The notes under the pieces: generated by a model | The model's input: only the letters and a program-made list of their open reading frames with translations | The model's database searches: none | Told to the model about the DNA's origin: nothing | Shown here: positions 2,445 to 56,660 of the stretch, piece after piece | How positions within the stretch are numbered: the first letter of the stretch is position 1 | Layout of the letters: each line of letters starts with the position of its first letter | Translations under genes and position numbers: made by a program | Source of the DNA: Bryobacterales bacterium | GTDB taxonomy: Bacteria > Acidobacteriota > Terriglobia > Bryobacterales > UBA6623 | DNA: 64,000 bases | Assembly: GCA_965242705.1 (NCBI GenBank) | Contig: OZ251486.1 | Location: 64,580-128,579 of the forward strand | Direction: 5' to 3'

Positions 2445-2642
2445 GCTTTCATTATGTCGGGGGCGCGCCCCGCGACCGCCGCGCAAAGCGCGGCCCGACC
2501 CGCGGCCCGTGGAATAGCGGAGAAAGCCAAGGCCAGCGCGGCGAGGCAACAGGCCGCCGGCACTTTCGCGCGATCCAAGCCGCCGCCAAGCCGCCGCCGT
2601 CTTGCGCTGCGCATCCCTTCCGGTAAAGTAGCACGCGAAAAC

Positions 2643-2856
2643 GGGGCCGCGCTTCGCGCGGCAGGGATTAGGGGTTGGGGGTTGGGGGGAACCGCACGGC
2701 TTCAGGGAAGCGAGGGCTGAAGGCATCCGGTCGATTTCGGCGGGGCGGCGTCGAAAATAAGTGATCATTGGTGAACATTGGCGAGCAAGGTGAACAATCC
2801 GTGCATGAAGCGCTTCTTTTCGTTCCATGAACCCCTTCGTACTTGACGGCGGCGCC
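2643..2856 (-). repeat. copy 2 of the ~200-bp repeat family (inverted relative to copy 1)
   Basis: Reverse-complement match to copy 1 blocks. Starts with hairpin ggccgcgcttcgcgcggc, followed by four G-runs at 2664-2689. Sits 29 nt past the stop of the DGQHR gene. Confidence 0.85.
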
Positions 2857-2884
2857 CGGCTGTGATTGGGGCCGCGGGTTGCGC

Positions 2885-4363
2885 TCAGCCGCCGGCCATG
2901 ACGCGCGCGCGCATGTTCACGGCCTCTTGCCACATTTCATCGAGATATTCGCCGTCCGCCGGTCCGTCATGATGCAGGAGGAGTTCCTGCCATTTCTTGC
3001 GAAGTTCAGTCGTTTGTTCCTCGTCGAGCGAATCGAGATTCAGCATCCAGCGAAGGATATTTTCGGCAACCTGGGCGGCGCTTTTGCGGTCTTCGCTGCG
3101 CATGCGCCAGTGATCGCCGCGCGATACGAGCAGGAGATGGCGCCAAGGGGCATCGTGCAGTTCCCATGAAACCCGAGAGAGCGGCTCCAGAGCCGACTTC
3201 ATCCGTTCGACATCCGCGCGTCCGCCTTGCGGGAAGCCGTCATCGAGCAAGGCGCGCACGAGCTTGGCGAAAAGTTCCTGGCCGATGGGCCAGAACACAA
3301 GGTGGTCGTGAAGGTGATCGTGAAGATCGCCCTCCCAACCTTCCTCGGCATGGCAGATCAGATGCACACCGACGCTCTCGATCCGTTGGTAGGGGGCAAG
3401 TCCCTTGTAATCTTCCCTGTCATGGCATCTCATAAGCAAAGGATTCCGTTTCAGATCTGGGAGCGTTTCCAGGATTGCGTCCCAGTACGCCGACAATTCC
3501 GCGTAGGCATCGTCAATGAAATCTTCTTCCGGGCGAATCTGCTTGTCCATGCTTCCGCCGTCTGAAAACCACCCTCGATTTATGCGTTCCCGCGTCGTGA
3601 GAAGAGTTTCGTTCATTGCATAGAGCGTTTGCAGCGCGGTGAAATGAGAATCATTGCTTTTCAGGTTTTTCCCCTTCGTCAGAACCTTGAAAGATTCCTT
3701 TTCCCTGCCCGGCGCGCGGAAAAAATCGTGGTCGGTAATCAGGCGGCGGGTCAAAATGGCGAAAAGGTCGTCTTCGTCCATGATGATGTTGGTGTCGCGG
3801 TCGGTCGGCTTGGCGTAGCGGTTCAAACTGGAAAACAGCCTGCGGTACCGCCGCAGCCACTCCCTTTCGGATACGTCGTGATCTTCGCGCAAAACCACGA
3901 TTACGGAAAGAAAATCTTCGTCGAAGCCCGCGGGAGGATTCTCGCGGGTGTTTCCGTTGACAAGCAATTTGACGGCATGTACGCGGTGCTGGCCGTCAAG
4001 CGCGTAATACTTGGGTTCATCGCAGAAAGAAAGAATGCCGAAAGTTTCTCCAAGAGATTTTGCAAGACTCTCGGGCACGGCGGACGGGTCTATTCTTGAA
4101 AGAGGAGTCCACGCCGGCTTTCCATCCATGGCGGCGACCACAATGGATGAGAAAAAGCGATCTTCTCTGCGCACCAGATAGCCGACGATATCTTTCTTGA
4201 CGCGGTTTTCCCCGAGAGTTCTCTGAATGGCGTCGCTCAGGGTCTTGTCTTGGTAAATATCGTGGGCAAGATCGACCTCGTGCGCGATCTCGCGCATCTT
4301 CATGCGCACGATAAAATAGTTCCAGTTTCCCATTTGGGCGCGAATCGCCGGGTAGATTTTCAT
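2885..4363 (-). CDS. DGQHR-domain protein (DndB-like / Pbe-type, ParB-Srx superfamily)
   Basis: 492 aa with the literal motif YALDGQHRVHAV and an N-terminal FPAIR-like start (YPAIRAQMGNWNYFIV). Last gene of the 8-gene operon. Confidence 0.8.
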   Translation of the reverse strand: MKIYPAIRAQMGNWNYFIVRMKMREIAHEVDLAHDIYQDKTLSDAIQRTLGENRVKKDIVGYLVRREDRFFSSIVVAAMDGKPAWTPLSRIDPSAVPESLAKSLGETFGILSFCDEPKYYALDGQHRVHAVKLLVNGNTRENPPAGFDEDFLSVIVVLREDHDVSEREWLRRYRRLFSSLNRYAKPTDRDTNIIMDEDDLFAILTRRLITDHDFFRAPGREKESFKVLTKGKNLKSNDSHFTALQTLYAMNETLLTTRERINRGWFSDGGSMDKQIRPEEDFIDDAYAELSAYWDAILETLPDLKRNPLLMRCHDREDYKGLAPYQRIESVGVHLICHAEEGWEGDLHDHLHDHLVFWPIGQELFAKLVRALLDDGFPQGGRADVERMKSALEPLSRVSWELHDAPWRHLLLVSRGDHWRMRSEDRKSAAQVAENILRWMLNLDSLDEEQTTELRKKWQELLLHHDGPADGEYLDEMWQEAVNMRARVMAGG

Positions 4364-4373
4364 GGCGGCCTCC

Positions 4374-4823
4374 TTACTCGCCTTGGATCATTTCGGCGAC
4401 CTCATCGGAGAGATGATCGAGCGCCGCATCTTCTCCGCATTCTTTCAGAATCGTTATCAATCGAGGCAGGCCGGCAAGGGCATACGCATTGGCGATACGC
4501 AGCATTTCGTTGGGATCCTGAGCCACATCCACATTGCCGGTGTGCGCTATCGCCAGAAGGATGAGCGCATCGGAACGCCAAGGGTCACTGCTCAAGGCGA
4601 CTCCTTCCATGGCCTTGTAGAGCTTGCTTTTGGTTTTGGTTTCCGGCTTAAGCCCTTCCCTGACCGCGAGGCAAACCGCGAAAAACCACATATCCACATT
4701 CCGCGGGAAGGGGCTGTCTTCCGGATTATTTCGCGATCCTTCGGCGCGCGTCAGACAATAGGCATGGAAATATTCCCGATACTTTTCGGGCAGCATAATA
4801 GCGGTTCTGTCAAACGCGTTCAC
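4374..4823 (-). CDS. small acidic protein; possibly the Dnd/Pbe-associated small subunit
   Basis: 149-aa ORF, 10 nt upstream of the DGQHR gene and 9 nt downstream of the DndD-like gene. No motif I can name; the assignment rests on position only. Confidence 0.45.
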   Translation of the reverse strand: MNAFDRTAIMLPEKYREYFHAYCLTRAEGSRNNPEDSPFPRNVDMWFFAVCLAVREGLKPETKTKSKLYKAMEGVALSSDPWRSDALILLAIAHTGNVDVAQDPNEMLRIANAYALAGLPRLITILKECGEDAALDHLSDEVAEMIQGE

Positions 4824-4832
4824 TGATCCCTC

Positions 4833-6947
4833 CTAACTCTTTTCGCCATCCACTTCTTTCGCTGCAATGGTCTCACGACGTTCGCAAATTTTGCAGTACT
4901 GCCGGTGGCCGCAGCCGCAAAGCAAAACCCTGGTGTCTTTCACGCTCGGCTTGTTGATGAGAATTTTTGGGTAATGCGCAGGGTTGGTAAACGTGTAAGA
5001 TTGCCCGGCATAGGTATCGAGGATACCTTCACATCCTTTAATTTCGTCATGCGTCAAAAAAAGGATGAGTTGCGAACTCTGCCGCACCGTATATTGCAGG
5101 ATGGCGGTTTTCACAAAGCCGGCCGCCATACCCAAGGGCGTATCGATCACATTCGGAGCGCTTACTTCGCTCACTTTGGTTAACGCCAAGATGAAAGCAA
5201 TGGTAAGCGCCCTGCGGGATGCGCCGTTCAAATCCTGCGACGGATCGAGAGGTTGTTCGTGTCGGCCGAATACGACAATTTTGAAATCCGATGTAATCTC
5301 CACTCGGATTATTATGGATCTCTGCGATGCATCCGCGCCGATCATGCCCAGGAACAAAGCGTTCATTTTTTCACTGACTTTACGGAGCTCGCTGGTTTTC
5401 ATTGCCTCCAAAGAATTTCCCAGAATGTCTTGCAGGTCTTGGGCAACTTCAAGCTCGGCGGCAAATCTTGCTCCCTGTTTGTCTTTGCTCAAGAGTTTTG
5501 CGCGTTCAGCTTCCAGTGACTGGCTTTCCCGCCGCTTCGATTCGAGCCGGGAGCTGAGGCGTATCTCTTGATCGCGAGCATCTCTGGATTGGTTGCGGTA
5601 GCGGTCTCTTGTAGTCCTTAGCTGCTGGGTGTCACTATCGGGAATCTGTGCGATTTTTGCCTCCACCGCCCGCTCGGCTTGCCCATAATGCTTGCGTCTT
5701 TTTTCAGCGTCTTGACGCCGTGCGAATGCTTCTGCGTGTTTATCGGCCCATGTCCGATCTCCGACCGGCGACAAAAGTTCTTGCGCGCTGAAGAAGAGCG
5801 CCGTAACTTTCTCTTGAATTGCGTCCGAGTTCCGGCTTTTTTCGATCAGGAGTTGGATGTTCTCCCTGCGTTTCTTCCCATCGGCATTGTGCGTATCGAG
5901 ACTCTCGCCGCAAATGCAATCGGGTTGGTTCAGGCGTTCCTCAAGAACAGGAATTGTCTGACTGGGAATCTTGCCTTGGGCGCGCAGCCGCTCCAGAATC
6001 CCTTTGGCCTTGGCAAACGGCTCGGACAACAGATGCTTGCCGAGCAGTTTACTTTGGAACAAATTCGTATGATCATGGGCAGCCCGCTCGGAATCTTTTT
6101 CGGCCAGTTTTCGCCCTCGAACAGCTTCTTCTCTCCGTTTTTCGAGGTCTTCCCTGTTGCCCTTGCGCAAGGCTTCTGAAAGCTCGTCATCGGCTTTCGA
6201 TGCAAGGCCGTCAAGGTTCATACGGATTTCTTTGGCCTTTTTGATATCTTCCTCAAGCTCTGGAATTTCCTCCTGGAGTTGCGCCAAGCGTTTCGTCACT
6301 TCGTCAAGCTGCTTGCCGCCGCCAACACCTTTCGGAATTTTCTGGTTGATGACTCTGCGAACTGTGCGCAGGTGGTCGCGGGCGTCTTCGATCACTCCAA
6401 CACCCAAAAGCTGGAGAATTGCGTTTTGGACCCGCTTCGTTTGATCTCCCCCCTCAATGAAGCTCAAAGCTCGGTCGCCGTCAGTGAAGAACACCTCGCG
6501 CAAGTCCATTGGGAGATGGGATTGGATGTGCGCTTCGGCATGGTCAAGCGGCTCCGCGCCTCTTGATTCCATGTTGTACAAACTGATATTGTCGTTCTGC
6601 CTATCCCATTTCCCGCCGGCAACTTTTTCGGTAACCTGCCGAATCAACCGATACTTTCTCTCTCGGCCATGCTTGTCCAGCGTCACGTAATCGACTTCAA
6701 CAGAAATGGCAGGAGAAGCTTCTTCACCGCTAGAGGCATCCAACGGACTCAAGCGAAAATCCCTTCCCGGATCCGGCAATCCTTGGTCTCCGAAAAGCCC
6801 CCATTGCAGAGCATGCAGCAGCGTCGTCTTGCCGCTCTCGTTGGCGGCGCGGATTACCGTGAGATTGCGGTCAGTTTTGGTTGAAAAATCAATCTCGACA
6901 TCTTTCAGAAGTCGAAAATTTTCAATGTGCGCACGCAACAGTTTCAT
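4833..6947 (-). CDS. DndD-like SMC/ABC-type ATPase
   Basis: 704 aa. N-terminal IENFRLLKDVEIDF...ANESGKTTLLHALQWGLFG (Walker A). Long coiled-coil middle rich in E/K/R/L. C-terminal Walker B LILFLTHDE. Cys cluster CGCGHRQYCKICERRE at the tail. Confidence 0.8.
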   Translation of the reverse strand: MKLLRAHIENFRLLKDVEIDFSTKTDRNLTVIRAANESGKTTLLHALQWGLFGDQGLPDPGRDFRLSPLDASSGEEASPAISVEVDYVTLDKHGRERKYRLIRQVTEKVAGGKWDRQNDNISLYNMESRGAEPLDHAEAHIQSHLPMDLREVFFTDGDRALSFIEGGDQTKRVQNAILQLLGVGVIEDARDHLRTVRRVINQKIPKGVGGGKQLDEVTKRLAQLQEEIPELEEDIKKAKEIRMNLDGLASKADDELSEALRKGNREDLEKRREEAVRGRKLAEKDSERAAHDHTNLFQSKLLGKHLLSEPFAKAKGILERLRAQGKIPSQTIPVLEERLNQPDCICGESLDTHNADGKKRRENIQLLIEKSRNSDAIQEKVTALFFSAQELLSPVGDRTWADKHAEAFARRQDAEKRRKHYGQAERAVEAKIAQIPDSDTQQLRTTRDRYRNQSRDARDQEIRLSSRLESKRRESQSLEAERAKLLSKDKQGARFAAELEVAQDLQDILGNSLEAMKTSELRKVSEKMNALFLGMIGADASQRSIIIRVEITSDFKIVVFGRHEQPLDPSQDLNGASRRALTIAFILALTKVSEVSAPNVIDTPLGMAAGFVKTAILQYTVRQSSQLILFLTHDEIKGCEGILDTYAGQSYTFTNPAHYPKILINKPSVKDTRVLLCGCGHRQYCKICERRETIAAKEVDGEKS

Positions 6948-7189
6948 GAATTTTTCCTTTTGGTCGTCTGGGGTTTGTGACGAGAGCGGTAGAGAAACAT
7001 GCCGACCGTATTCACTTTGTCGGTGATCTGCTTGACTACCGTGGTGCGAGTTATTCTATGCCCGCGTTCCGCTTGCAGGACTTCTCCGAGCAGATGGACA
7101 AATTCTTTTTTGTATCCAGGACACCGTTCCGGAACCTTCTTGAGTTCCTCAAGCAAAACCTTGATAACCTTTTTGTCGTTGTAGGCCAT
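6944..7189 (-). CDS. small basic hypothetical protein (81 aa), translationally coupled on both sides
   Basis: Internal ATG of ORF 6944..7456. Its start overlaps the helicase stop by 1 nt, and its stop overlaps the DndD-like start by 4 nt (ATGA). Confidence 0.55.
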   Translation of the reverse strand: MAYNDKKVIKVLLEELKKVPERCPGYKKEFVHLLGEVLQAERGHRITRTTVVKQITDKVNTVGMFLYRSRHKPQTTKRKNS

Positions 7190-9384
7190 CAGTTCATTAC
7201 CCTTTCGTTGGCGAGGTTTTGCAGATGCCGCACGGCCTCGTAGGGGCCGCCGTTGAGCGGGCCGTTTCTGCTCAGGCGGGCGAACTCCCATACTCTTTCG
7301 AGTTCGGAGCGCACCAGCTTTCTTGCGTCGGCGTCGAGGGTTTCGACCGTTCGCGAGGACGTTCCCGGCGGCAGCACCACGAAATCGTGGATTACGGCAT
7401 GGGTTTTGCCGATCTCCTTGCAGGTGCGCAGCAGGCGTCCGCGCCGCTGTATCCATTGGCGCCGCACGGTCGTACTGGCCAGGACGTAGGCCGTTTCGAT
7501 CTGGGGGATGTTCACGCCTTCGTCGAGAACCCGCTTGGCGGTCAGGATGCGCAGGCCGCCTTCCTGGAAGGCCGCAAGTATCTTTCGGGTTTGTTCGCGG
7601 CTGCTCGTTTCCTCGGCCGTCAGTTGGTGGAAAAGGATGCGTCTTTCCTGCAGGAGAGCGTTGACCCGCGCAAGCTGCTCGGGCTGCTTGTCGGTCGCGT
7701 AGATCAGCGTGTGCTTGAAGGCGCGGGGGCCGCGGTCGTCAAGCAGGCTCGCCAGGATATCGAGTTTCTGTTGCGCGGTTTCCAGAATCAGCCGCCGCTT
7801 GCGCAGGAGATTGTCCAGATACGGATCCCTTTCGCCGTCTTCGGTTTTCCATGAGAGGGCGGAAATCTTTTCCGTCAATTCCTGCCATGCGTCCATCTCA
7901 CCGCGGCTCAGTTCGGCGAAATGGACGTGGTAATCGTATTCGGTGAGGCATTTGCCGACGGCCTGCTCGAGGGTAAAAGAGAAACAGATATCGCCGAAAT
8001 AGGCGATCAGGGCATCGGTTCCTTGCTCATCGTACTGGCGGACGGGCGTTGCCGAGAGGCCGAGCCGGAAGTCGAAGATTTCCGGCGGGTCGGCGGTGAA
8101 GGACGCGGCGCCCAGGTTGTGGCACTCGTCGGCGATGAGCAGCTTGGGGGCTTTCGCCGCGGCAACGTCGGCGATGAATTTGGGGGTGCGGAGCGTATCG
8201 TTGCTGACGACCAGCGCTTCGGCGCGGGAGTTGCCCATGCGCAGCCGCCGTCCGGCCTGTTTGATTTCGCGCTCCCGCTTGCCCGGCCCGCCGGCCTCCG
8301 CGAGGTTGATCGGGCGGACGCCGAATTCTTCGATTTCGCCGCACCATTGTTCGATCAACGGCCTGTAGGGAGCGGAAACGACTACGAGCAGCTTGCCGAC
8401 TTCGTCTTGCAGGCGGGCGGCGCAGATCATGGAGGTAATCGTTTTGCCCGAACCGGTGGCCATTTCGAGGATGCCCTTGCGGCCGCTTTTCTCCCAAGCG
8501 GCGACGGCCTGCCCCTGATGGGCGAAGTCTCCGCTTTCGTAGATCAGCCAATCGGGGATATGGAGTTCGGCTTTGCCGATAACCGGATCGGGGGGCGGGG
8601 ATTGCCCAAGGGAAGCCGCGCTGCGCTCGCCGGGCAGCGCCTCGGTCTTGTATTTCCGCACGAGCCGGCGCTCGACGGCTTCGGGAAGGCGCAGGACGCG
8701 GCAATTTTCATCGCCGCCGGCCCAGAGGGCATCGAACTCCTGCCGGAGCCGCTCGACGTGGAAAACGGCCTCGGCGCCTTTCCAGTCGCGGGAGAGGGTC
8801 AGTTGCTCCTTGTTTCTGGACAGCCCGCCCTGGGTGAGATTGGTCGAGCCGTGCAGCGCGGCGCGGTTGGCGCCGTCCGCGAAAAGCCAGACCTTCGGAT
8901 GAAACAGGGCATCGCGCATGACGGCGACCTGGATCAGCAGCCGGTTTTGGGTAATCAGCCAGGCAAGGCACTCGAGGGTATGCCGGGCCAGCGCGTCCTC
9001 GTCGGGCACGTCGTTGATCAGGATGCGTTCGGCAAGGCGGGTCAGGGCTTCGCGGTCTTGCGTCAGGACGTCGAAATCTTCAGCGGTGAGAAAGGGGCTG
9101 ACGATCATGCGCATGGGCGCCGCGGAGTTGCGCAGGAAGGTTGCGAGTCCGGGGCCGATTTCGGCCAACGAGGCGCTCGAAAAATACCCGGTCATGACGT
9201 CGAGGGCCGCGCTCGCCCGCAGCGCGGGGATGAGCACTTCTTCAGCGATGGAGTCGCCCGGAAGCACGTACAGGGGATGCGCAGCGGATACCGCCAACTG
9301 CAGATCGGCCGGCGGCAAGCTGAAGCCGCCGGCCATTTGCCGCAAGGTTTCCGCGGGCGGCTGTTCGAGGTTCACTTGTGGCAT
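7189..9384 (-). CDS. PLD-family (single HKD) nuclease fused to an SF2 DEAD/DEAH (ResIII-type) helicase
   Basis: 731 aa. HKD motif HPKVWLFAD...HGSTNLT. Helicase motifs MATGSGKT (I), LLIADECHNLG (II), LGLSATP (III) and QRRGRLLR (VI). Confidence 0.85.
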   Translation of the reverse strand: MPQVNLEQPPAETLRQMAGGFSLPPADLQLAVSAAHPLYVLPGDSIAEEVLIPALRASAALDVMTGYFSSASLAEIGPGLATFLRNSAAPMRMIVSPFLTAEDFDVLTQDREALTRLAERILINDVPDEDALARHTLECLAWLITQNRLLIQVAVMRDALFHPKVWLFADGANRAALHGSTNLTQGGLSRNKEQLTLSRDWKGAEAVFHVERLRQEFDALWAGGDENCRVLRLPEAVERRLVRKYKTEALPGERSAASLGQSPPPDPVIGKAELHIPDWLIYESGDFAHQGQAVAAWEKSGRKGILEMATGSGKTITSMICAARLQDEVGKLLVVVSAPYRPLIEQWCGEIEEFGVRPINLAEAGGPGKREREIKQAGRRLRMGNSRAEALVVSNDTLRTPKFIADVAAAKAPKLLIADECHNLGAASFTADPPEIFDFRLGLSATPVRQYDEQGTDALIAYFGDICFSFTLEQAVGKCLTEYDYHVHFAELSRGEMDAWQELTEKISALSWKTEDGERDPYLDNLLRKRRLILETAQQKLDILASLLDDRGPRAFKHTLIYATDKQPEQLARVNALLQERRILFHQLTAEETSSREQTRKILAAFQEGGLRILTAKRVLDEGVNIPQIETAYVLASTTVRRQWIQRRGRLLRTCKEIGKTHAVIHDFVVLPPGTSSRTVETLDADARKLVRSELERVWEFARLSRNGPLNGGPYEAVRHLQNLANERVMN

Positions 9385-10214
9385 GCGAGGCAGACCTTGG
9401 CTTTTCCGTAGAGGTCATCGATATCGACGGGTTCGGCGTCGGGGCGGAGCGGGTTGCGCTGGAAGGCGGCGCGCATGCGCTTGAGGCGGCGCTCGTGTTC
9501 TTGCTTGATTTGGGCGACGCGCTCGGGTTTGGCGATGTCGATCAGCGATTCGCCCTGGCTCCAGGTGAAGGGCGAGCCGTGGTCGCCGGCGTGTTTTTCG
9601 TAGCGCTTGGCTTCTTCGAAGTATTCCGGGTGCCGCTCCATCAGCCGCACCCATTCGATTTTTTGCTGGAAGAAGCAGAAGGTGCAGCCGCTGCGGGTGC
9701 GCCATTCGTAGTATTGGGGCAGCCCCAGTCCCGCGCCTTCCAGGATTTCAAGGACGCCGGCCTTGTCGATGCCGGCGTCCTTGAAGGGCAGGCGGACGAC
9801 GAGATCGTCGTGCTTGGAGGCGTAGCCTTCGCGGTATTCCTCATCGGCGCGGATGGCGACGTAGCTGAACACTCTGGCTCCGTTGTCGAGCGCGGGCTTG
9901 ATCCACTGCTCGAAAGGGCGCAGCTTCAATTGCCGCGTACACCAGCGGGACTGCGGCGAGGGCAGGAAGTTGCCGTATTGCTTGAGCCAGAAATCGAAAT
10001 CGCGGTCGGGATTCAGGCGCAGGATGGGCTTGCCCAGGAACCCTTCGAGCTTGACCAGGAATTCATAGACTTCGGGCAGTTCCTTGCCGGTATCGGTGAA
10101 GAAGTAGTCGATATCGAGCTCGGGGCGGGTCTGGCGCATATGGACGGCCAGCGCCGCGCTGTCGCGTCCGCCCGACAGGCCGAGGACGTGCCGTTCCGGT
10201 TGCGTCTTGCTCAT
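9372..10214 (-). CDS. sspD: PAPS-reductase / ATP-pyrophosphatase family protein, SspD-like
   Basis: 280 aa with PP-loop LGLSGGRDS. Cys cluster CTFC and a C-terminal CLAC. Start overlaps the sspC-like stop by 4 nt. Confidence 0.75.
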   Translation of the reverse strand: MSKTQPERHVLGLSGGRDSAALAVHMRQTRPELDIDYFFTDTGKELPEVYEFLVKLEGFLGKPILRLNPDRDFDFWLKQYGNFLPSPQSRWCTRQLKLRPFEQWIKPALDNGARVFSYVAIRADEEYREGYASKHDDLVVRLPFKDAGIDKAGVLEILEGAGLGLPQYYEWRTRSGCTFCFFQQKIEWVRLMERHPEYFEEAKRYEKHAGDHGSPFTWSQGESLIDIAKPERVAQIKQEHERRLKRMRAAFQRNPLRPDAEPVDIDDLYGKAKVCLACHK

Positions 10215-13200
10215 GGGGCGGCTCCCTCTCGGTCCGCCGGCTCCGCGGCGTCCGTCAGATAGCGGGCGCTCAACTCGGCCAGGGCGGCCAGAACGACGTT
10301 TCGCGGCGCTTCGCCGGCTCCGCGCAGCGCCGCGTCGATGCGGTCGCGCAGCGCCCGCACTTTGGGGCGGTCACGGTCGGCGAGGTCGAATTCGCCGCTG
10401 AGCGGCGTCGGGCGTCCGTCGATGCCGACGACCACGGCCAGGGCATGGCGCTTGTCGGGGCGGCCCTTGACGCGGGCGAAGGTTTCGGCGCGCAGGAACC
10501 GTTGGGCCATGGCGGCGAGCTCGATCGCGGCGCGGTCGATATCGGCATCGACCCAGGCCGCGGGGGGCTTGTTGACGGCCATGCTCGCCAAGCCTTGCAG
10601 GTCTTCGCCGCTGCCTTTGAATTGGGCGAGGCGGACGACAAAGGCTTCGAGGCGGTTGTCGCCGGCAAGCCCGCGGACGTTGGCGGCGCGGCCGCGCAGC
10701 TCGGCCAGCATCGCCGGCGAGCCGTTGGGCACTTGCAGTTCGGCCAGCAGCATTTCTTTCATGCGGGCGAGCATCCGCGGATAGGCTTGCTGCAATTCCT
10801 CCAGGCCTTCGCGGACCCGGGTTACGATGCGCCGCGCGGTTTCCTTTTCGCCGCCCGGCGCGCTGCCGTCCGGCGTTTCGCCGTCGAGAACCGAGGGCAG
10901 GTCGTCGAAGATCAAGCGGTTCGGGTCGTTGGCTTGCTTGAAGAGCCGGCGGATACGCTTGGCGGCGCCCGAGAGTCGCTGGGTGCGGCCCGTCCAGGGC
11001 GGCAAGCGGTCGTGGATAGCCACGAGGCCTCTGGCCACGTCGATGGGTTCGAGGTTGCGGAGCGCGTTCGTCTCGTCGAGGGCGCGCACCGCGGAGGCCA
11101 GCCCGGAGAGCAGCCGCCGCGCCTCGTCGTCGAGATTCATCCAGCGCAACTGCACGTCGGCGGGGTCGTTGACCAGATAATCGATATCGAGATCGGCGAC
11201 GCCCGCCTGGAAGACGCCTTGGCGGTAGAAGGCCAGATTTTCACGCTGCGAGAGCAGGAACGCTACGGCCAAGACGGGCAGCAGGCCGTCTTTGACGCCG
11301 TAGGGCGGCCGCCGCCAGACGTCGTAAATTTCGGCTATCGGGAGCGCCCGATTGGCGTTGTCTTGCAGGTATTTTTCGGCGGCCCGCCAAGCGGGCGACA
11401 GGTTGCGGTTATGCGGGGGGGGGGGGGGGGGGGGGGCAAAGCGCAGCCCGGCCGGCGTTTCGCGGTACAGGCCGGCGGCGTCGAGCAGGGAGTCGAACAG
11501 GCCGCCTTCGGCGGGGAAGCCTTCGATGCCGAGCCGCGGCTCGCCTTCGTTGCCGACCATGCGCCGCAGGAGGGCGTTGCGCGCGGCGGCGGCGCTGCTC
11601 GACGGCTTCACGCGGCAGAGGAGCTCGTTGGGCAGCCGCGGCGCCTGCGAGAAGCGGGCGTCGGCAAGGTCGGAAGCGATGGCGTTGCGCGCGGCGGGGG
11701 ACAGCGGCTTGGCGTCGGGCGCAAGGCTGCTGCGCCAGAGCGCGCCGTCGAACGCGCGGGTCAACTCGCTTTCGAGCTTGGCTTGCGCGTCGGCAACGCG
11801 GGCGCGGACCTGCTCGCGCGCCACCCGGTCGCCTTGCAACTCGGGCGTTTCGTCGCGTACGCGTTCGAATGCCGCCAACTCCGCCGTCAATTCGGGAATG
11901 CTCCTGCCGTGCCGCGAGGTTCCAACCATTATGTCCCATTCGCGGTTTCGCCGCACGACCGCCCGGCAAATTGCCTCTGCTTCCGCCTGCGTTTCGCCCT
12001 GCGCGGGGACGGCGAGGAAGAAGCTGCCGAGCGCGCCGCGGCTCGGCTCGCGGGCGGCGGCGTCTTCGAGGCCGCTGAGGGGAACTATGCCGACGTCGAA
12101 CCAGCGCAAGGCGCCCGTTTCGTGGTAGTGGCGCTTGGCCACGACGGGCTGCAGGCCGGCGAGCGCGTTGAGCGAGGCGAAATCGGTTTCGTCCGTTTCC
12201 GCCCGCGCCTGCTCCACCGCCCGGTCGATATCGAAGTCGCTGCCCTCGAAGACCGCCCAGGCGCCCTCGTATTTGCGGAATTCGATCAGACGCCACTGTT
12301 GCAGGCGCTCGAGGGTCTTTTCGATTTGCGGGGGGCTGCAATCGGGCAGGGCGAGTCGCAGCAGGCGGGGGCTTGCGGGCAGGCCGGAGCGGTCTTTGAG
12401 CATATCGGCCAGGGCGACCGTCTTGAGCAGGCGGAGATGCAGGGCGCCGCCGCCCTTGTCTTGGCAGCGTCTCAGGGCGTCCGCGGCAAGCGCCCAGCGG
12501 TATCCGTCGGGCGAAGCCAGGATTGAGGGTTCGAGATTGACGCGCAGGTAGTCCCAGAGGCGCTCGGGGCCGTAGAGATCGCCGCCGTCGGCGCCGCGCA
12601 GAAAATCCTGGAAGCCTTGAGGCTCGGCCGAGTTGAGGAAGCCGAAGATGCTGCGTTGATTCTGTCCGAAGCGCCGCCGCGAAACGGGGCCGAGCAGGCA
12701 GGAGACGAGGGGATGCAGCGGGCGGCATTCCTGCAGATAGTCGGCGAGTACGGAGTCGGGCTGCCCCGAGGCGAGCTCGGCTGCGCCGGCGGCCAGCTTT
12801 TCGAGGCGTTTCGTCCGGCGGACGTTTTGGTTTTCGACGGCGCGGCTGAGGATGTCGATCTGCTCGTCCGGGGCGGCGTTGACGACAAGATCGACGAAGC
12901 GGCCCTGAATTTTCGACCATTCGCCGCGCATCTCGCGCGAGAGGCGGTGGGCGTATTCGGCGAACGCCTGATGGAGGATGCCGACGACGATCAGCCTGCG
13001 GTTGCTGCGCGAGGCCAGCTCGGCCATCTGCTGGAACAGATGGATATCGGCCTCGCCGCGGGCCGCGGCTTCGAGAAACTTGCCCATTTCGTCGAGGAAG
13101 ACGACCAGGCCGCCGCAGTTGCGGGGGTTGCGCGCGGCGATGCGGGAGAGGGCGTCGAGGACGCCTTGTTCGGTCCAGCGCCGCGGTATTCGGCCGCGCA

Positions 13201-13609
13201 AGAGGCGAGACTTGACGAGGGCTTCGCCGATGACCTGCTCGGGGCGGCCGCGCCGGCCGACCACGGGCAGGGTGCGCCAGCCGCTTTTTCGCGGCGGCAG
13301 CGCCTCGGCGAGCAGGGCTGCGGTTTCGTTGCCCAAGGCTTCCGCCGCGCGGCCGCGGACGGCCTCGTTTCCGTTGAGCGCCGCGCTCAGGGCAACGACG
13401 AGGCTCGACTTGCCGCCGCCGTAGGGGCCGGTCCAGGTGAACGCGCCCTGGCCGTTTTCGGCCGCGTGGCGGGCCATGTTTTCGAGCACGTCGGCGGACG
13501 ACTGGGGGCAGAGGAAGCCCTCGAGCGCGGCCGGATCGCGGAGATCGGCGTCGATGCGCACCGCGCGCCGGAAGCGCCGGGACACGCGCACCCGATCGGC
13601 AAGCGGCAT
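10211..13609 (-). CDS. sspC: large P-loop ATPase, SspC-like (DUF499/BrxC-type)
   Basis: 1132 aa. Walker A GPYGGGKSS and Walker B-like VVFLDEMGKF. Start overlaps the sspB-like stop by 1 nt. Contains an in-frame C22 run encoding Pro7. Confidence 0.7.
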   Translation of the reverse strand: MPLADRVRVSRRFRRAVRIDADLRDPAALEGFLCPQSSADVLENMARHAAENGQGAFTWTGPYGGGKSSLVVALSAALNGNEAVRGRAAEALGNETAALLAEALPPRKSGWRTLPVVGRRGRPEQVIGEALVKSRLLRGRIPRRWTEQGVLDALSRIAARNPRNCGGLVVFLDEMGKFLEAAARGEADIHLFQQMAELASRSNRRLIVVGILHQAFAEYAHRLSREMRGEWSKIQGRFVDLVVNAAPDEQIDILSRAVENQNVRRTKRLEKLAAGAAELASGQPDSVLADYLQECRPLHPLVSCLLGPVSRRRFGQNQRSIFGFLNSAEPQGFQDFLRGADGGDLYGPERLWDYLRVNLEPSILASPDGYRWALAADALRRCQDKGGGALHLRLLKTVALADMLKDRSGLPASPRLLRLALPDCSPPQIEKTLERLQQWRLIEFRKYEGAWAVFEGSDFDIDRAVEQARAETDETDFASLNALAGLQPVVAKRHYHETGALRWFDVGIVPLSGLEDAAAREPSRGALGSFFLAVPAQGETQAEAEAICRAVVRRNREWDIMVGTSRHGRSIPELTAELAAFERVRDETPELQGDRVAREQVRARVADAQAKLESELTRAFDGALWRSSLAPDAKPLSPAARNAIASDLADARFSQAPRLPNELLCRVKPSSSAAAARNALLRRMVGNEGEPRLGIEGFPAEGGLFDSLLDAAGLYRETPAGLRFAPPPPPPPHNRNLSPAWRAAEKYLQDNANRALPIAEIYDVWRRPPYGVKDGLLPVLAVAFLLSQRENLAFYRQGVFQAGVADLDIDYLVNDPADVQLRWMNLDDEARRLLSGLASAVRALDETNALRNLEPIDVARGLVAIHDRLPPWTGRTQRLSGAAKRIRRLFKQANDPNRLIFDDLPSVLDGETPDGSAPGGEKETARRIVTRVREGLEELQQAYPRMLARMKEMLLAELQVPNGSPAMLAELRGRAANVRGLAGDNRLEAFVVRLAQFKGSGEDLQGLASMAVNKPPAAWVDADIDRAAIELAAMAQRFLRAETFARVKGRPDKRHALAVVVGIDGRPTPLSGEFDLADRDRPKVRALRDRIDAALRGAGEAPRNVVLAALAELSARYLTDAAEPADREGAAP
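11415..11436. repeat. perfect 22-nt G homopolymer (C22 on the coding strand) inside the sspC-like gene
   Basis: Read directly: atgc + 22 g + caaagc. It encodes APPPPPPPH in the intact 1132-aa frame. Confidence 0.9.
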
Positions 13610-14556
13610 CAGGCGGCGCCCTTTCCGTTGCGCGCCGGATAGTCCGCGGCGAGGAAGTCGAGCGTTTCAGCGCCGGTTGCCTTGCGCTTGCGGGTCAATT
13701 GCTTCAATCCTGCGGCTTCCGACCAGTCGTAGAGGTCGCCGCTGACTTTCTGGAGATCGGCGAGCCGATCGGCCAGGTCGTTTTCTTCGAGCAGGAAGAC
13801 GCGGCCCGGAGAACCCGGCTCGTGGGCAAGGGCTTCGAAGGAAAGGGTATTGCGGGCGTCGGGGAAACGCGACCAGAAATCGGTCACCGCGTAGCAGAAT
13901 ACCCCGGCGCCGAGCGAAGGCTTGCCGCCGCGCATGAAGCGGAAACCGTCGCGCCGGCCGAGCGGACGGATCAAGCCGAGCTCGGTCAGCGGCGACTCGA
14001 GGGTATCTTCGCGGCTCGCCTTGCCCGAGGGCGTTTGGGCCGCGTAGGTGCGCACGAAGCAGGCCACGTCGTTTTTGAGGGTGGCGATTGAGAAACGCCA
14101 GCCGCGCTCCAGGGCGAGTTTTTCCAGTGTTGCGGTCAGCAGAGCGCGTTCGAAGAACAGGGCCGGGAAGTGGCTGAATGCCCAGAACCAAGTGGTTTTG
14201 CGCGGATTGCCGCAGAGGCGCCAATGGATCGTCCAGGCGGCGGCGGGGTTTTCCATCCAGGGGTCGAGGCCGCCGGGGGCGAACAGCCGCCGTCCGAGCG
14301 GGGTGGGCGCGGACGCCGCGGCGTCGATCACTCCGGCGGTCTCGGCCCAATGGCGTATCGAGGCGACCATGTTCTTGCCGACGCCGAAGCGGGCTATGGC
14401 GTCTTCGGCGGAGAAGACCGACTCGCCGAGGCCGGCGTCTTGCGCGGCCGCGGCGGCATCGACGGCTTTTTTGAGCCAGCCGTAGCGCAGGGGAAAGGTC
14501 TCGTGCCCGGAAAACCGGGGCTGGTAGCCGTTTTCGTAGAGGGGACCCCGCGGCAT
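13609..14556 (-). CDS. sspB: DUF4007-type protein, SspB-like
   Basis: 315 aa with N-terminal YQPRFSGHETFPLRYGWLKKAVD, which I recognise as the DUF4007 signature. First gene of the operon. Confidence 0.7.
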   Translation of the reverse strand: MPRGPLYENGYQPRFSGHETFPLRYGWLKKAVDAAAAAQDAGLGESVFSAEDAIARFGVGKNMVASIRHWAETAGVIDAAASAPTPLGRRLFAPGGLDPWMENPAAAWTIHWRLCGNPRKTTWFWAFSHFPALFFERALLTATLEKLALERGWRFSIATLKNDVACFVRTYAAQTPSGKASREDTLESPLTELGLIRPLGRRDGFRFMRGGKPSLGAGVFCYAVTDFWSRFPDARNTLSFEALAHEPGSPGRVFLLEENDLADRLADLQKVSGDLYDWSEAAGLKQLTRKRKATGAETLDFLAADYPARNGKGAA

Positions 14557-14682
14557 GGAATGGTCAATCTCGGCCGATCAGCCGGCTCGACTCAGCCGGT
14601 TCGACATGGGCGGTTCGACATGGGCGGCGCTTCGCGCTATGGTCAATGCTTGGTCGGCGGCAGGCTTCAGGCATCGGGAACC
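14557..14682. promoter_or_regulatory. divergent sspB/sspA intergenic region with direct repeats (candidate operator/promoter)
   Basis: Perfect tandem ggttcgacatgggc at 14598-14611 and 14612-14625. atggtcaat occurs at 14560-14568 and 14639-14647. Near-repeat gccgg(c/t)tcgac at 14581 and 14595. Confidence 0.45.
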
Positions 14683-15858
14683 ATGCGCGGCGCAACGACG
14701 GTCTATGCGGACTATCAGGCGACAACGCCGGTTGACCCGCGTATTATCGCAAAGATGGCCCCGTGTTGGGGCGAGGCGTTCGGCAATCCGCATTCGAGCG
14801 ATCACGCGGTCGGCAGGCTGGCGGAGGCGAAGGTGCGCGAGGCGGCCGCGTCCGTTGCGGCGCTGATCGGCGCCGATGACGACGAGGTGGTTTTCACTTC
14901 CGGCGCTACTGAAGCCAACAATCTGGCGCTGCTGGGATTGGCGCGGAGGGCGCCGGCGGGGCGGCGGCGCATCCTGACCAGCGCCGTCGAGCACAAGTGC
15001 GTATTGGCCGCGGCGCGGGCGCTGCAGGAGCGCGAAGGCTTCACGGTGGAGACGATTCCCGCGGACGGCGAGGGGTTCGTCGATCTCGAGGCGCTGGAGC
15101 GGCTGCTGGGCGACGACGTTCTGCTTGTTTCGGCGATGGCGGTGAACAACGAGGTGGGAACGATTCAGGACATCCCGCGGATTGCGGCGGCGGCGGCGGC
15201 GCGCGGGGTCGTCTTCCATTGCGACGCGGCGCAAGCGCCCTGCGCAATGGACATCGGCAGCCTTGCCGACCATGCCGGCCTGGCGAGTCTTTCGGGGCAC
15301 AAGATGTACGGCCCGCAAGGCATCGGCGCGCTGTACATTCGCCGGGATTTGCAGGAGCGCATCGAACCGCTGATTTACGGCGGGGGGCAGCAGAACGGCC
15401 TGCGTTCGGGCACCATGCCCATGCCGCTTTGCGTAGGCATGGGCGCGGCGGCGGCGCTGGCGGCGGGGGGCGAAGCGGCCGAGGAGCGCGAGCGGGTCGG
15501 GCGGCAGCGCGACCGGTTCGCGGGTCTGCTGGAAGCAGGGGCGTTCCCGGTTGCGGTGAACGGACCGGCTGCGGGGCGGCGGCACCCGGGCAACGCCAAC
15601 ATCCGTTTCGACGGGTTCGATGCGCACGACGTTCTGGGGGCGCTGCAGCCGCGGCTGGCGGCGTCCACCGGCTCGGCCTGCGCGTCGGGCATACCCGAGC
15701 CGTCGCACGTGCTGCGCGCGCTCGGCCTGACGGCGGCGCAGAGCGAAGCCTCGATCCGTTTCAGTTTCGGCAGGTTCACCAGCGACGACGAGATCGAAAC
15801 AGCGGCTCGGCTGGCGCTCGAGGCTCTGGAGTCGGCGTCGGCGGGGCGCGGCGGGTAA
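14683..15858 (+). CDS. sspA: class V PLP-dependent cysteine desulfurase, SspA-like
   Basis: Internal ATG of ORF 14170..15858. VYADYQATTPVD start, FTSGATEANN, SLSGHKMYGP (PLP lysine) and STGSACASG (active Cys). Confidence 0.8.
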   Translation: MRGATTVYADYQATTPVDPRIIAKMAPCWGEAFGNPHSSDHAVGRLAEAKVREAAASVAALIGADDDEVVFTSGATEANNLALLGLARRAPAGRRRILTSAVEHKCVLAAARALQEREGFTVETIPADGEGFVDLEALERLLGDDVLLVSAMAVNNEVGTIQDIPRIAAAAAARGVVFHCDAAQAPCAMDIGSLADHAGLASLSGHKMYGPQGIGALYIRRDLQERIEPLIYGGGQQNGLRSGTMPMPLCVGMGAAAALAAGGEAAEERERVGRQRDRFAGLLEAGAFPVAVNGPAAGRRHPGNANIRFDGFDAHDVLGALQPRLAASTGSACASGIPEPSHVLRALGLTAAQSEASIRFSFGRFTSDDEIETAARLALEALESASAGRGG

Positions 15859-15875
15859 GGCGCGGCGGCGGGCGG

Positions 15876-27297: not shown

Positions 27298-27503
27298 GGG
27301 CCGCGCTTCGCGCGGCAGGGGTTAGGGGTTAGGGGGAACCGCACGGCTTCAGTGAAAAGAGAGCTGAAGCCACCCGGTCGATTTCGGCGTCGCCGCGTCG
27401 AAAATAAGTGATCATTGCCGATCATTGGCGATCATTGCTGAACATTTGCGCATGAAGCGCTTCTTTTCGGCGCATGAACCCCGTCAGACTTGACGGCGGC
27501 GCA
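27298..27503 (-). repeat. copy 3 of the ~200-bp repeat family, in the divergent promoter region of island 2
   Basis: Same blocks as copy 2. Internal 10-bp tandem gatcattgcc/gatcattggc/gatcattgct at 27410-27439. Confidence 0.85.
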
Positions 27504-27647
27504 GGGACTGTGAGTCGGGGCGCGCTTTGCGAGGCAGTCGCGGGCCGCGGGTCGGGCGGCTGCGTCCGCCGTTGTTGCCTGCTTGTCGGGTTTTTTGCCG
27601 GGGATTTCTCCCGCTGCGCCGGCGGGTATCGGCTCTCGGAAACTGCT

Positions 27648-28937
27648 ATGCTGTCGGACAAGCGGGACCGCCTCAAAGTGAGCAGCCGCAACGGCATTCG
27701 AATCGAGCGCGAAGCGGGCAATGCCGTTTACCTGGACTATGCGGCGACGACGCCCGTTGACCGCCGGGTGATCGCGGCGATGAGCCGCTGTTTGGGGATT
27801 GACGGCGTGTTCGGCAACGCGGCGTCGCGGCCGCATCGGTTCGGACAGGAAGCCCGCGAGGCTGTGGAGAAAGCGCGGGAACAGGTGGCCGCGCTGCTCA
27901 ACGCCGACCCCGCCGAGATCGTCTGGACATCGGGCGCCACTGAGTCGATCAATCTGGCGATCAAGGGCGCGGCGCATGCCCGCGCCGGGCGGGGCAGGCA
28001 TATCGTCACTTCGGGACTGGAGCACAAGGCGGTTCTGGACTCGTGCGGCCAGTTAGCCCGCGAGGGGTTCGAGGTTACCCATCTGCGCCCCGGCGCGGAC
28101 GGGCTGATTTCGCCGGAGAGCGTTGAGGAAGCCCTGCGCGACGACACGATTCTCGTTTCGCTGCTGCATGTGAATAACGAAACCGGCGCCGTTACCGACA
28201 TCGAGGCGGTCGGGGAAGTTACGCGCTCCCGCGGAATTGCCTTTCACGTGGACGCCGCCCAGAGCGCGGCGCGTTTGCCGCTCGATATGCGTTCGGTTCA
28301 GGCCGACCTGGTTTCCCTCAGCGCGCACAAGATGTACGGGCCGAAGGGCGCCGGCGCGTTGTATGCGCGGCGCAGGCCGCGCGTCCGGCTGGAGCCGCTG
28401 ATCCACGGCGGCGGCCATGAGCAGGGGCTGCGCTCGGGGACATTGGCGACCCATCAGATCGTCGGCATGGGCGAGGCCGCAAGGCTGGCGCGCGAGCGCC
28501 GCGCCCGCGACGCGGTGGCGGCCGCCGCGCTCGACCGGCGCTTGCTCGATTCGCTGCTGGGCATGGAGCGCGTTTCCCTGAACGGCAGCGCAACGCGCCG
28601 CGCGCCGGGCATCGTCAATGCCGCCTTCGCCTGCGTCAAGAGCGAATCGCTGATGATGGTGTTGAAGGATGTTGCCGTTTCCTCCGGCTCGGCCTGCACA
28701 TCGTCGCGCATCGAGCCGTCGCACGTCTTGCAGGCGCTGGGCGTCCCCGGCGATCTTGCGGCTTGTTCGATCCGTTTCAGCCTGGGGCGCTTCACGACCG
28801 CACAGGAAATCGACTTCGCCGCGCGGCGCGTGCGGGAATCCGTCGAAGCCCTGCGCGAATTGTCGCCGCAATGGCAGGCGCCGGCGGGGCGCGGCGCGGA
28901 AACGGGTTTTCGGCATGAACAGGCGGTGACGGCATGA
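27648..28937 (+). CDS. dndA: class V cysteine desulfurase, DndA/IscS-like
   Basis: Internal ATG of ORF 27474..28937. [32 protein letters not shown] and SSGSACTS. Stop overlaps the dndC-like start (ATGA). Confidence 0.75.
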
Positions 28938-30124
28938 GCGAAGGCCTCGTTTCAATAGGCGTTGCGGGCGGGGCCGCGCGCGCCGCCAAGCGCATCCGCG
29001 ACACGGTGGATGTTCTGCGCACGGAATACCTGCGCGAAAATTTCGAGCCGTGGGTGTTGGCCTATTCGGGCGGCAAGGATTCGACGCTGCTGCTGCAACT
29101 GACTTGGGAGATGCTGCTCGATCTGCCCGACCCCGAACGCCGCCGCGAGATCTTTGTGGTCGGCAACGATACGCTCGTCGAATCGCCGCTGGTAATCCGC
29201 CATCTCAAAACCACGCTGAAGGCGATCGACGAGGCCGCCGCGTTGGACCGGCTGCCCATCGAGACGCGAATCACCAAGCCGCATATCGATCAGACTTTCT
29301 GGGTCAACGTGATCGGGCGCGGCTACATCCCGCCGACACGCAATTTCCGCTGGTGTACCGACCGGATGAAAATCATCCCCACGGGCGGGCTGCTGAAAAC
29401 GCTGGTGCGCCGGCACAAGAGCGCCGTGCTGCTGGTCGGGACGCGCAAGAGCGAGTCGCAGAACCGGCGCCGCAACATGGCCAAACACGGCGCTTCGGCA
29501 ACCGCGATGAACCCGCACGGCTCCATCGAAGGATGCCGCATGTTCGCGCCTCTGGCCGAGTTCGAAGACGATGACGTCTGGTTGACCCTGATGCAGCGCG
29601 ACCCGCCTTGGGGCGGCTCGCACGACGCCTTGATTACGCTGTACCGCAACGCCGGCGGCGGCGAATGTCCGCTGGTGCTGACCAAAGACGACGCGCCTTC
29701 GTGCGGGACGACCTCGCCCCGTTTCGGCTGCTGGACGTGTACCGTGATCAACAAAGACCGCAGCTTGCGCGGGTTGATCGACTCCGGGCACGAGGACGCG
29801 GAAATGTTCGAGCGGCTTTTCGATTTCCGCGAGTGGCTGATCGAGTTGCGCGAAAACGACGCCAACCGCAGCCGCGTCCGGCGCGACGGCAACACGTGGT
29901 ATCGAGCCGACGGCAGCTTGGTTATGGGGCCGTTCACGCTCGACGTGCGGCAACGGATACTCGACCGCCTGCATGCGCTGGAAAAAGAACTGGGGGAGAA
30001 GCTGATTTCCGCCTCAGAGTTGGAAGTGATCGATGACATCTGGTATAGGGATCGGATTCAGGAAGATTGCCGCATGGCCTTTCAGAATTCATATGCACTA
30101 GCAGATGAAGGAGCACTGACTTGA
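28934..30124 (+). CDS. dndC: DndC-like PAPS-reductase-fold sulfurtransferase
   Basis: 396 aa. [20 protein letters not shown]-loop, [10 protein letters not shown], and the DndC-type cysteine block [10 protein letters not shown]. Confidence 0.75.
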
Positions 30125-30126
30125 AA

Positions 30127-35893: not shown

Positions 35894-36058
35894 GCGGTAC
35901 GCTCCCGATTCGGCGCGGTGCTGGGCGCGGCGGTCGAGGGGCGGCGCGTTGAAGGCGGGCTGCGGGGGCGGTTTCCATGCGGCGGCGGGATTTTTGCGAG
36001 TTTTTGGGGCGGCGGGCGCTTTTTTGCGCGCCGGCGGAATTGGTACAATTGCGGCGGC

Positions 36059-56485: not shown

Positions 56486-56660
56486 CTGCGCAGCCGTCAA
56501 GCCTGACGGGGTTCATGCGCCGAAAAGAAGCGCTTCATGCGCAAATGTTCAGCAATGTTCAGCAATGATCACTTATTTTCGACGTTTTGCCGCGGAAATC
56601 GACCGGATGGGTTCATATCTCTTTTTACTGAAGCCGTGCGGTTCCCCCCAACCACTGCCG
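56486..56660 (+). repeat. copy 4 of the ~200-bp repeat family; overlaps the 3' end of the MFS gene
   Basis: ctgcgcagccgtcaagcctgacggggttcatgcgccgaaaagaagcgcttcatgcgc ... cacttattttcgac ... gaaatcgaccgg ... actgaagccgtgcggttcccccc. Internal 10-bp tandem at 56541-56570. Confidence 0.85.

Follow-up and report, generated by a model that had tools for sequence, protein, structure and literature searches.

Does an Ssp DNA phosphorothioation (PT) system use a Pbe cassette as its restriction partner? The question is raised by a 64,000-nt stretch of DNA from a Bryobacterales bacterium (assembly GCA_965242705.1, contig OZ251486.1, positions 64,580–128,579; hereafter the window), in which the PT-writing genes sspBCD are followed by genes for a helicase, a DndD-like ATPase, two small proteins and a DGQHR-domain protein. 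Reviews list dndFGH/sspFGH, sspE and pbeABCD as the only restriction branches of PT systems, with Pbe tied to Dnd. We consider it likely that positions 2885–15858 constitute one PT-based defence locus, in which SspABCD is the writer and PbeABCD restricts unmarked DNA. Coordinates are window positions throughout, and L001–L096 are the labels of the homologous loci compared here.

The locus consists of eight minus-strand reading frames, running from 14556 down to 2885, and of sspA, which is divergent from sspB, a point absent from the initial annotation of this DNA. The SspABCD writer is complete and clustered in the window, with PADLOC matches to all four proteins. The features are as follows.

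14683–15858, plus strand: sspA, cysteine desulfurase (PADLOC SspA 3e-126, DndA 5e-123; Pfam Aminotran_5 8e-74)
14557–14682, no strand: divergent intergenic spacer between sspB and sspA, 126 nt, likely site of both promoters
13609–14556, minus strand: sspB, DUF4007 protein (PADLOC SspB 5e-99; Pfam DUF4007 8e-80)
10211–13609, minus strand: sspC, large ATPase (PADLOC SspC E = 0, 1244 bits)
9372–10214, minus strand: sspD, sulfur transferase resembling phosphoadenosine phosphosulfate (PAPS) reductase (PADLOC SspD E = 4e-135)
7189–9384, minus strand: pbeA, HKD/superfamily 2 (SF2) helicase, 731 aa (PADLOC PbeA and Pfam domains)
6944–7189, minus strand: pbeB, 81 aa (position, size and conservation)
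4833–6947, minus strand: pbeC, DndD-like CxC ABC ATPase, 704 aa (PADLOC PbeC and motifs)
4374–4823, minus strand: pbeD, 149 aa, putative DndE cognate (position, size and annotation of homologues)
2885–4363, minus strand: DGQHR-domain protein of the ParB/DndB superfamily, 492 aa (Pfam DndB, TIGR03187)

The five genes that the initial annotation had placed after sspD on the same strand, with all their coordinates and junctions, were confirmed on the DNA. Over the 11,672 nt from the sspB start to the stop of the DGQHR gene, every junction overlaps or leaves a gap of at most 10 nt. The sspB/sspC junction reads TGATG and the sspC/sspD junction ATGA. The pbeA ATG overlaps the end of sspD by 13 nt (an alternative in-frame GTG start, three codons in, would give a 4-nt GTGA overlap), the pbeA stop and the pbeB ATG share 1 nt (TGATG), and pbeB and pbeC overlap at ATGA. 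Shine–Dalgarno sequences are present in both intergenic gaps, GGAGGG in the 9 nt between the pbeC TAG and the pbeD GTG, and GGAGG in the 10 nt between the pbeD TAA and the ATG of the DGQHR gene. Since the same gene row recurs across many unrelated genomes, we judge that this packing is not due to chance. Both promoters likely lie in the 126-nt spacer between sspB and sspA, where a plus-strand promoter-like site was found at 14615–14643 (a consensus match only). In a consensus scan for promoters and terminators, no terminator-like site was found at the junctions, and two weak intragenic ones were found on the operon strand; as the total was below shuffle expectation, the scan speaks neither for nor against one transcript.

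Judged by gene order, sizes and profile matches, 4374–9384 is a complete pbeABCD cassette in the canonical A-B-C-D order, and the DGQHR gene (2885–4363), which is not part of PbeABCD, is the sole addition to it. The initial annotation had taken PbeABCD to be a DGQHR protein, a small protein, an ATPase and a helicase. That composition is contradicted by PMC6459918 and PMC10853773, and the slip is explained by plasmids carrying dnd and pbe, on which a gene for 'DGQHR protein 1' follows or faces pbeD. Profile searches with PADLOC, Pfam and NCBIfam, proposed at the time, matched the PbeA, PbeC and Ssp families. These identities, together with the overlapping sspD and pbeA, bear out its proposal that a Pbe-type module lies in the same operon as sspBCD, to which it is translationally coupled.

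PbeA is described as an HKD endoDNase fused to an SF2 helicase (Rakesh 2024, PMC10853773; Xiong 2019, PMC6459918). The window protein aligned with the PADLOC model PDLC02707 at model positions 14–665 of 672 (E = 4e-193) and combines an N-terminal single HKD (PLD-type) domain with an SF2 (DExH) helicase (Pfam ResIII, DEAD, Helicase_C and PLDc_2). The HKD part is included in the PADLOC alignment, so the HKD domain, initially taken for a novelty on the helicase, is canonical for PbeA. Residues H163 and K165 and the motifs HGSTN (178–182), TGSGKT (310), DECH (419), SATP (444) and QRRGR (646) are invariant in 13 orthologues, covering H-x-K ... GSxN as well as helicase motifs I, II, III and VI. The score against TIGR04095 (dnd_restrict_1) was 370.4 bits, under the 600-bit cut-off, with the helicase part alone aligning (residues 288–709).

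PbeB is a small, rapidly evolving protein (Rakesh 2024, PMC10853773, where it is labelled 'SP'), with 66 aa in the type system, where PbeB and PbeD are both essential (Xiong 2019, PMC6459918). In 12 other loci, homologues of the 81-aa open reading frame (ORF), with 33–75% identity, occupy the same position between pbeA and pbeC, and it is because of this conservation in place that we regard the ORF as a real gene. In position and size it agrees with PbeB of Xiong 2019 and with 'SP' of Rakesh 2024; rather than an added gene, as had been proposed, it is the canonical PbeB. No PADLOC model matched the 81-aa, 149-aa or 170-aa ORFs at E values up to 10, and the PbeB identity is therefore based on position, size and conservation. 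The 170-aa ORF (6944–7456) was considered as the PbeB frame and rejected; the orthologues align from the ATG at 7189.

PbeC is described as a CxC zinc-hook ABC ATPase (Rakesh, Aravind, Krishnan 2024, PMC10853773). The window protein matched PADLOC PbeC (E = 4e-49) better than DndD (1.6e-38), and the Walker A ESGKTT (37–42), C344-I-C346, the signature NGASRR (574) and the Walker B VIDTP (600) are invariant in 13 orthologues. A C-terminal cysteine cluster (C677xC-x5-C685xxC688), distinct from the CxC hook in the middle of the protein, is invariant in the 12/12 orthologues aligned there and may be a second zinc site. PbeD, a DndE cognate of ~150 aa (PMC10853773) with 152 aa in the type system (PMC6459918), is fitted by the 149-aa protein in size and position. 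Many of its 1499 homologues carry precomputed matches to PF27807 (DNA_S_mod_dnd_assoc_4), and its own score against TIGR04062 (dnd_assoc_4) was 13 bits, with a cut-off of 74. An AlphaFold2 model (predicted local distance difference test score, pLDDT, 81.5) starts strand-helix-helix. In Foldseek, DndE (4lrv) was the only match with template modelling scores near 0.4–0.57 (0.41/0.57), at a non-significant E of 5.6, and a PDB sequence-profile search gave no match.

The linkage of the two sets of genes recurs well beyond the window. In 17/17 non-redundant loci with PbeA relatives of at least 49% identity, from Alphaproteobacteria, Binatia and Dehalococcoidia and with one plasmid included, sspBCD lies within 10 kb; given that sspBCD is present in only about 3% of genomes (PMC12914056), this is far beyond chance. 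In a scan of one genome per species, where the closest PbeA had 71% identity, 11 strong relatives were found (49–71% identity), all 11 with pbeABCD and sspBCD within 10 kb. They belong to a Binatia metagenome-assembled genome (MAG), Hasllibacter, Mesorhizobium, Qipengyuania, Sphingopyxis, Sphingobium, a Rhodospirillales MAG and four Dehalococcoidia MAGs, and 6 are arranged head-to-tail like the window, 5 convergently. Four more PbeA relatives (63–76% identity) have the window's arrangement, and two metagenome lineages (L016/L017 and L086/L087) carry the same eight-gene operon, DGQHR gene included; L086 shares 98.7% nucleotide identity with window positions 2512–11412 and L016 about 85%. A Sphingomonadaceae plasmid (CP099618.1) encodes sspABCD-pbeABCD beside an integrase, under generic product names only. 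With about 20 other loci, we conclude from these comparisons that Ssp–Pbe is a conserved architecture and not a one-off splice.

What follows pbeD varies among these loci. No further gene was found in L001, L002 and L088–L090, an AAA_16 ATPase in L003–L006 and the plasmid, a GmrSD_N-type protein in L007 and L091, and the DGQHR protein in the window lineage; L009 has a DndB-like gene after sspD. In the plasmid collection, PbeA matches fall from 57% to at most 34% identity, with nothing between. The distant matches are Dnd-linked in Ruegeria and Pontibrevibacter, methylase-linked in Halobaculum and without a writer nearby in Pseudanabaena. A plasmid of Rhizobium indigoferae (L096, NZ_CP140639.1, 6330–17389) carries pbeB-C-D-A convergent with sspA-B-C-D; its PbeA is 32% identical to that of the window, and its PbeD is annotated as 'DNA phosphorothioation-associated protein 4'. 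Ssp linkage is therefore found in at least two Pbe lineages.

Composition differs along the row. The GC content at third codon positions (GC3) is 0.81–0.85 in the ssp genes and 0.86 in the neighbouring glnE, 0.79 in pbeA, 0.57 in pbeB and pbeC, 0.61 in pbeD and 0.66 in the DGQHR gene. In a sliding analysis, the step falls exactly at the pbeA/pbeB junction (7189), from 0.73–0.87 in pbeA to 0.57 in pbeB and 0.48–0.65 in pbeC. The same step was found in L016, and in L001 and L004 the entire pbe cassette, pbeA included, is lower than ssp. The break suggests modular exchange, with pbeBCD (and the DGQHR gene) swapped behind a resident pbeA; if these genes are exchangeable as a unit, they would be specificity-type modules.

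The DGQHR protein matched Pfam DndB (5e-26) and the generic DGQHR-domain model TIGR03187 (98.8 bits, over the 58.85 cut-off). It missed the cut-offs of TIGR03233 DndB (56.9 bits, cut-off 328) and of TIGR04172 'DNA phosphorothioation-associated DGQHR protein 1' (13.9 bits, cut-off 450), and by these scores it is neither DndB nor 'DGQHR protein 1', passing the generic model alone. The motif D123-G-Q-H-R127 is invariant in 33 homologues. Its family, of ~465 aa, gave 1318 matches, more than 120 of them at 53–69% identity over the full length. The window protein has ~200 extra, highly conserved C-terminal residues. No nuclease domain was recognizable in the protein, and its model (pLDDT 80) found no meaningful match in Foldseek against the PDB.

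We surveyed the neighbourhoods of this family in 66 metagenome loci, counting the 28 with at least 5 kb of sequence. Ssp genes were found in 22/28, a ~540-aa SNF2 helicase in 24/28, both in 19/28 and Pbe genes in 1/28. In three genomes (L015, L018 and L019), divergent sspA and sspBCD are followed by a gap and then by the DGQHR and SNF2 genes. The gap holds a conserved ORF of 137–182 aa with a GIY-YIG-like pattern (GVY ... YxG ... R ... H ... E ... N), for which the top Pfam GIY-YIG match was 1.4e-5 and most matches were under threshold. This trio of GIY-YIG-like ORF, DGQHR gene and ~540-aa SNF2 gene recurs by sspBCD (L015 9442–13085, L018 9488–13074, and also L022, L023, L036, L037, L043, L062, L066 and others) and looks like a candidate further Ssp effector module. 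In the window, L016/L017 and L086/L087, the DGQHR gene comes after pbeD instead, without the small ORF and the SNF2 gene. Many Ssp–Pbe loci (L001, L002, L088–L090) have no DGQHR gene, which shows that the pairing can do without it.

What we observe is the identity of the genes, the intactness of their catalytic motifs, the tight packing of the operon and the conserved linkage of Ssp and Pbe across phyla. That Pbe reads Ssp-made PT, and what each protein does, we infer by analogy with Dnd–Pbe (Xiong 2019), domain logic (Rakesh 2024) and work on the ParB-like fold of DndB and SspE. In the proposed mechanism, SspABCD would mark host DNA with PT, while PbeC and PbeD, the latter as a DndE-like DNA-binding partner, would load onto DNA and scan it. 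PbeA would translocate and, on unmarked DNA, block replication and/or cut through its HKD site; because this site is intact, PbeA is probably a nuclease as well as a translocase. PbeB would act as a regulator that restrains or triggers the complex. The DGQHR protein, an NTPase-like, nucleotide-dependent sensor or regulator in this scheme, would make the effector, or else the extent of PT writing, responsive to modification status. In the type system, Pbe protection needs PT but not the Dnd proteins (Xiong 2019, PMC6459918), and 83.9% of 2678 sspBCD clusters are without sspE or sspFGH, so that further partners are expected (Wang 2021, PMC8092258).

Several points weigh against this proposal. 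Rakesh 2024 (PMC10853773) doubts that Pbe is a simple restriction partner of PT, and Pbe cassettes also occur with methyltransferases or without a writer nearby. A true SspE (PADLOC 7e-240) stands beside Pbe in L008, L010 and L011, all Dehalococcoidia MAGs, between pbeD and the convergent sspBCD at about 15080–17410, which implies that Ssp has another effector there. By its GC3, the cassette is compositionally chimeric and may have been assembled recently. The relationship of PbeD to DndE is weakly supported, being not significant in our own tests; a single transcript is no more than suggested, by gene packing; and the DGQHR gene of the window, without its usual GIY-YIG-like and SNF2 neighbours, could be a leftover.

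The window holds a second tightly packed PT-like cluster on the plus strand (27474–38887), which bears on the choice of partner for Pbe.

Within 27474–38887, plus strand: cysteine desulfurase (PADLOC SspA 4e-154, DndA 1e-151)
28934–30124, plus strand: DndC-like PAPS reductase, 396 aa (PADLOC DndC 6e-111)
30121–31911, plus strand: DUF262-DUF1524 GmrSD-type nuclease (HEC-06 1e-63, 'Orf5'; the SspE match is N-terminal only)
Within 27474–38887, plus strand: SNF2 helicase, 473 aa (33–37% identical to the SNF2 proteins that accompany DGQHR elsewhere)
Within 27474–38887, plus strand: ParB_N protein, HTH_ParB protein, metallo-β-lactamase-fold protein and 989-aa protein

No DndD or DndE was found in the window, where 28934–30124 is the sole DndC-like gene. 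The cluster was matched to no named system, and a literature search on TdpABC returned unrelated papers only.

The adjacency of Ssp and Pbe could also arise if two self-sufficient systems shared a defence island, SspABCD being an 'orphan' epigenetic writer and PbeABCD working without regard to PT. Pbe could then be, for instance, the abortive-infection or suicide device, released by way of PbeB, that Rakesh 2024 suggests. The methyltransferase-linked and writerless cassettes, the SspE genes beside Pbe and the different origins implied by the GC3 step would all fit such an island, as would the 320/553 PbeAC pairs called solitary by Xiong 2019 (PMC6459918), but that count is older than the discovery of Ssp and hence unusable against linkage. 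Two independent systems would leave unexplained the start–stop overlap of sspD and pbeA, as well as a PbeA clade whose 17 loci, from three phyla and in two relative orientations, all have sspBCD no more than 10 kb away, with the same link in a second Pbe lineage, and we regard a mere shared island as unlikely. Far less probable still is that the cassette serves the DndA-like and DndC-like genes of the second cluster (27474–30124). A DndC-like PAPS reductase and a cysteine desulfurase 18 kb off would suit the published Dnd–Pbe pairing, but they lie on the opposite strand, their cluster lacks DndD and DndE and already includes a DUF262-DUF1524 nuclease and an SNF2 helicase, and relatives of this PbeA always adjoin sspBCD, not dndC.

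For the DGQHR protein, the choice lies between a part in restriction and a part in writing. It could resemble the ParB-like N-terminal domain of SspE and serve as a nucleotide-dependent sensor or adaptor, or it could be merely a DndB-like negative regulator of PT writing that binds the ssp promoter or limits ATP and stands outside restriction. DndB, its best named relative, is documented as an ATP-modulated repressor of dnd in work cited by PMC10853773, and the tie of the family to sspBCD would suit a regulator too. The wide margin by which the DndB equivalog cut-off was missed, the conserved C-terminal extension and the Ssp–Pbe loci that do without the gene argue otherwise, and the company that the family usually keeps, an adjoining SNF2 helicase and commonly a small GIY-YIG-like ORF, resembles an effector set. 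Because this company is a nuclease-like ORF and a helicase, we favour a sensor or adaptor over a DndB-like brake, while granting the latter a real, if smaller, chance of being right.

Returning to the joint Ssp–Pbe locus, its flanks are a GNAT acetyltransferase gene (around 2034–2600) and glnE (15876–18770). Neither an integrase nor a tRNA boundary of an island was seen in the window, and scans of all 64,000 nt for tRNAs and for Rfam families (at the gathering threshold) gave no matches. At 2513–2614 (minus strand), the first 34 codons remain of a 644-aa beta-propeller-like gene that follows the DGQHR gene in L086, which indicates a deletion or rearrangement directly downstream of the operon in the window. 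This gene (640–644 aa in L016 and L086) was rejected as a sixth component because of its host-like GC3 (0.85), weak beta-propeller matches, absence elsewhere and reduction to 34 codons in the window. An intergenic repeat of ~210–250 bp is present in four copies with 78–81% identity (2644–2897, 27298–27546 and, in reverse, 903–1101 and 56488–56653); it contains a TTGACG box and, internally, short TGATCATTGG-like repeats. The stop codon of the DGQHR gene adjoins one copy, and another immediately precedes the second PT-like cluster; the repeat had no Rfam match.

As for novelty, PADLOC already names the window proteins PbeA and PbeC. No description of Ssp–Pbe or of Ssp–DGQHR–SNF2 was found in the searchable literature, in agreement with the initial annotation, which knew of no account of such coupling; Xiong 2020 (Nat Microbiol) and Krishnan 2020 (NAR, PMC7544218) lie outside that literature and could mention the linkage. 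We thus regard the locus as made of known parts, an Ssp writer and a Pbe cassette, in a pairing for which the searchable literature offers no description. Tentatively, and with less assurance than for the locus itself, Ssp–Pbe could be a PT defence type of its own, widespread though still without a name, in which SspABCD marks are read by a CxC-ABC/HKD-helicase machine and the DGQHR protein is a portable PT-status adaptor, joining Ssp to GIY-YIG and SNF2 proteins or to PbeABCD. If so, it would explain part of the 84% 'orphan' sspBCD clusters and part of the 58% 'solitary' pbeAC pairs.

In the usual view of PT systems the partners are fixed: DndFGH or Pbe for Dnd, SspE or SspFGH for Ssp. A conserved and translationally coupled Ssp–Pbe operon would show that Pbe depends neither on Dnd chemistry nor on double-stranded GAAC/GATC-type marks; it would then sense the PT linkage itself, unless PbeC and PbeD co-adapt to each writer. 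The pairing also provides candidate partners for the majority of sspBCD clusters, in which a partner is missing, and it suggests that many Pbe cassettes of the 2019 count, which is older than the discovery of Ssp, were called 'solitary' without being so. In the supplement of PMC6459918 (file 6), Sphingopyxis indica DS15 and Mesorhizobium sp. LC103 have PbeAC entries without dndC, dndD or methylase, and such alphaproteobacterial 'solitary' entries may be Ssp-linked cassettes.

Among known systems, the writer genes are shared with SspABCD–SspE and SspABCD–SspFGH (PMC8092258), in which the effector genes likewise come directly after sspD. The DGQHR protein has a loose analogue in the ParB-like (DUF262) NTPase domain at the start of SspE. 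The effector in the window is a helicase-nuclease and ABC-ATPase machine. No operon protein matched PADLOC SspE, and tblastn with a true SspE gave no match in the whole window; the operon proteins matched no further PADLOC family that would indicate SspF, SspG or SspH, for which no sequence query was made. Loci with sspBCD, the GIY-YIG-like ORF, DGQHR and SNF2 have the same DGQHR family (35–69% identity) downstream of sspD, but the window is without the small ORF and the SNF2 gene and has pbeABCD between sspD and the DGQHR gene. With DndB of dndBCDE, the DGQHR protein shares the DGQHR motif, the ParB-like fold family and the association with a PT writer; it is ~130 aa longer and is encoded at the 3' end of the effector genes, whereas DndB is at the 5' end of the writer operon.

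DndCDEA-PbeABCD of Haloterrigena jeotgali A29 (PMC6459918), called 'CxC-ABC-ATPase-centred' in PMC10853773, has the same four-gene A-B-C-D cassette, with an HKD and SF2 PbeA, a small PbeB, a CxC ABC ATPase as PbeC and a PbeD of about 150 aa, directly downstream of a PT-writing operon. On Dnd-linked plasmids of Ruegeria and Pontibrevibacter (RefSeq), dndCDE-A is followed by two intervening genes, pbeABCD and then a ~175-aa ORF with 'DGQHR protein 1' (TIGR04172), the last two running in the same direction as pbeABCD in Ruegeria and convergently with it in Pontibrevibacter; the window has no ~175-aa ORF ahead of its DGQHR gene. Plasmid PbeA next to dndCDE-A is only about 33% identical to the window PbeA, and the window proteins miss the cut-offs of the Dnd-linked families dnd_restrict_1, dnd_assoc_4 and DGQHR_dnd_1. 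The writer differs as well, since in the window it is SspABCD, with sspBCD upstream and sspA divergent, and not DndCDEA.

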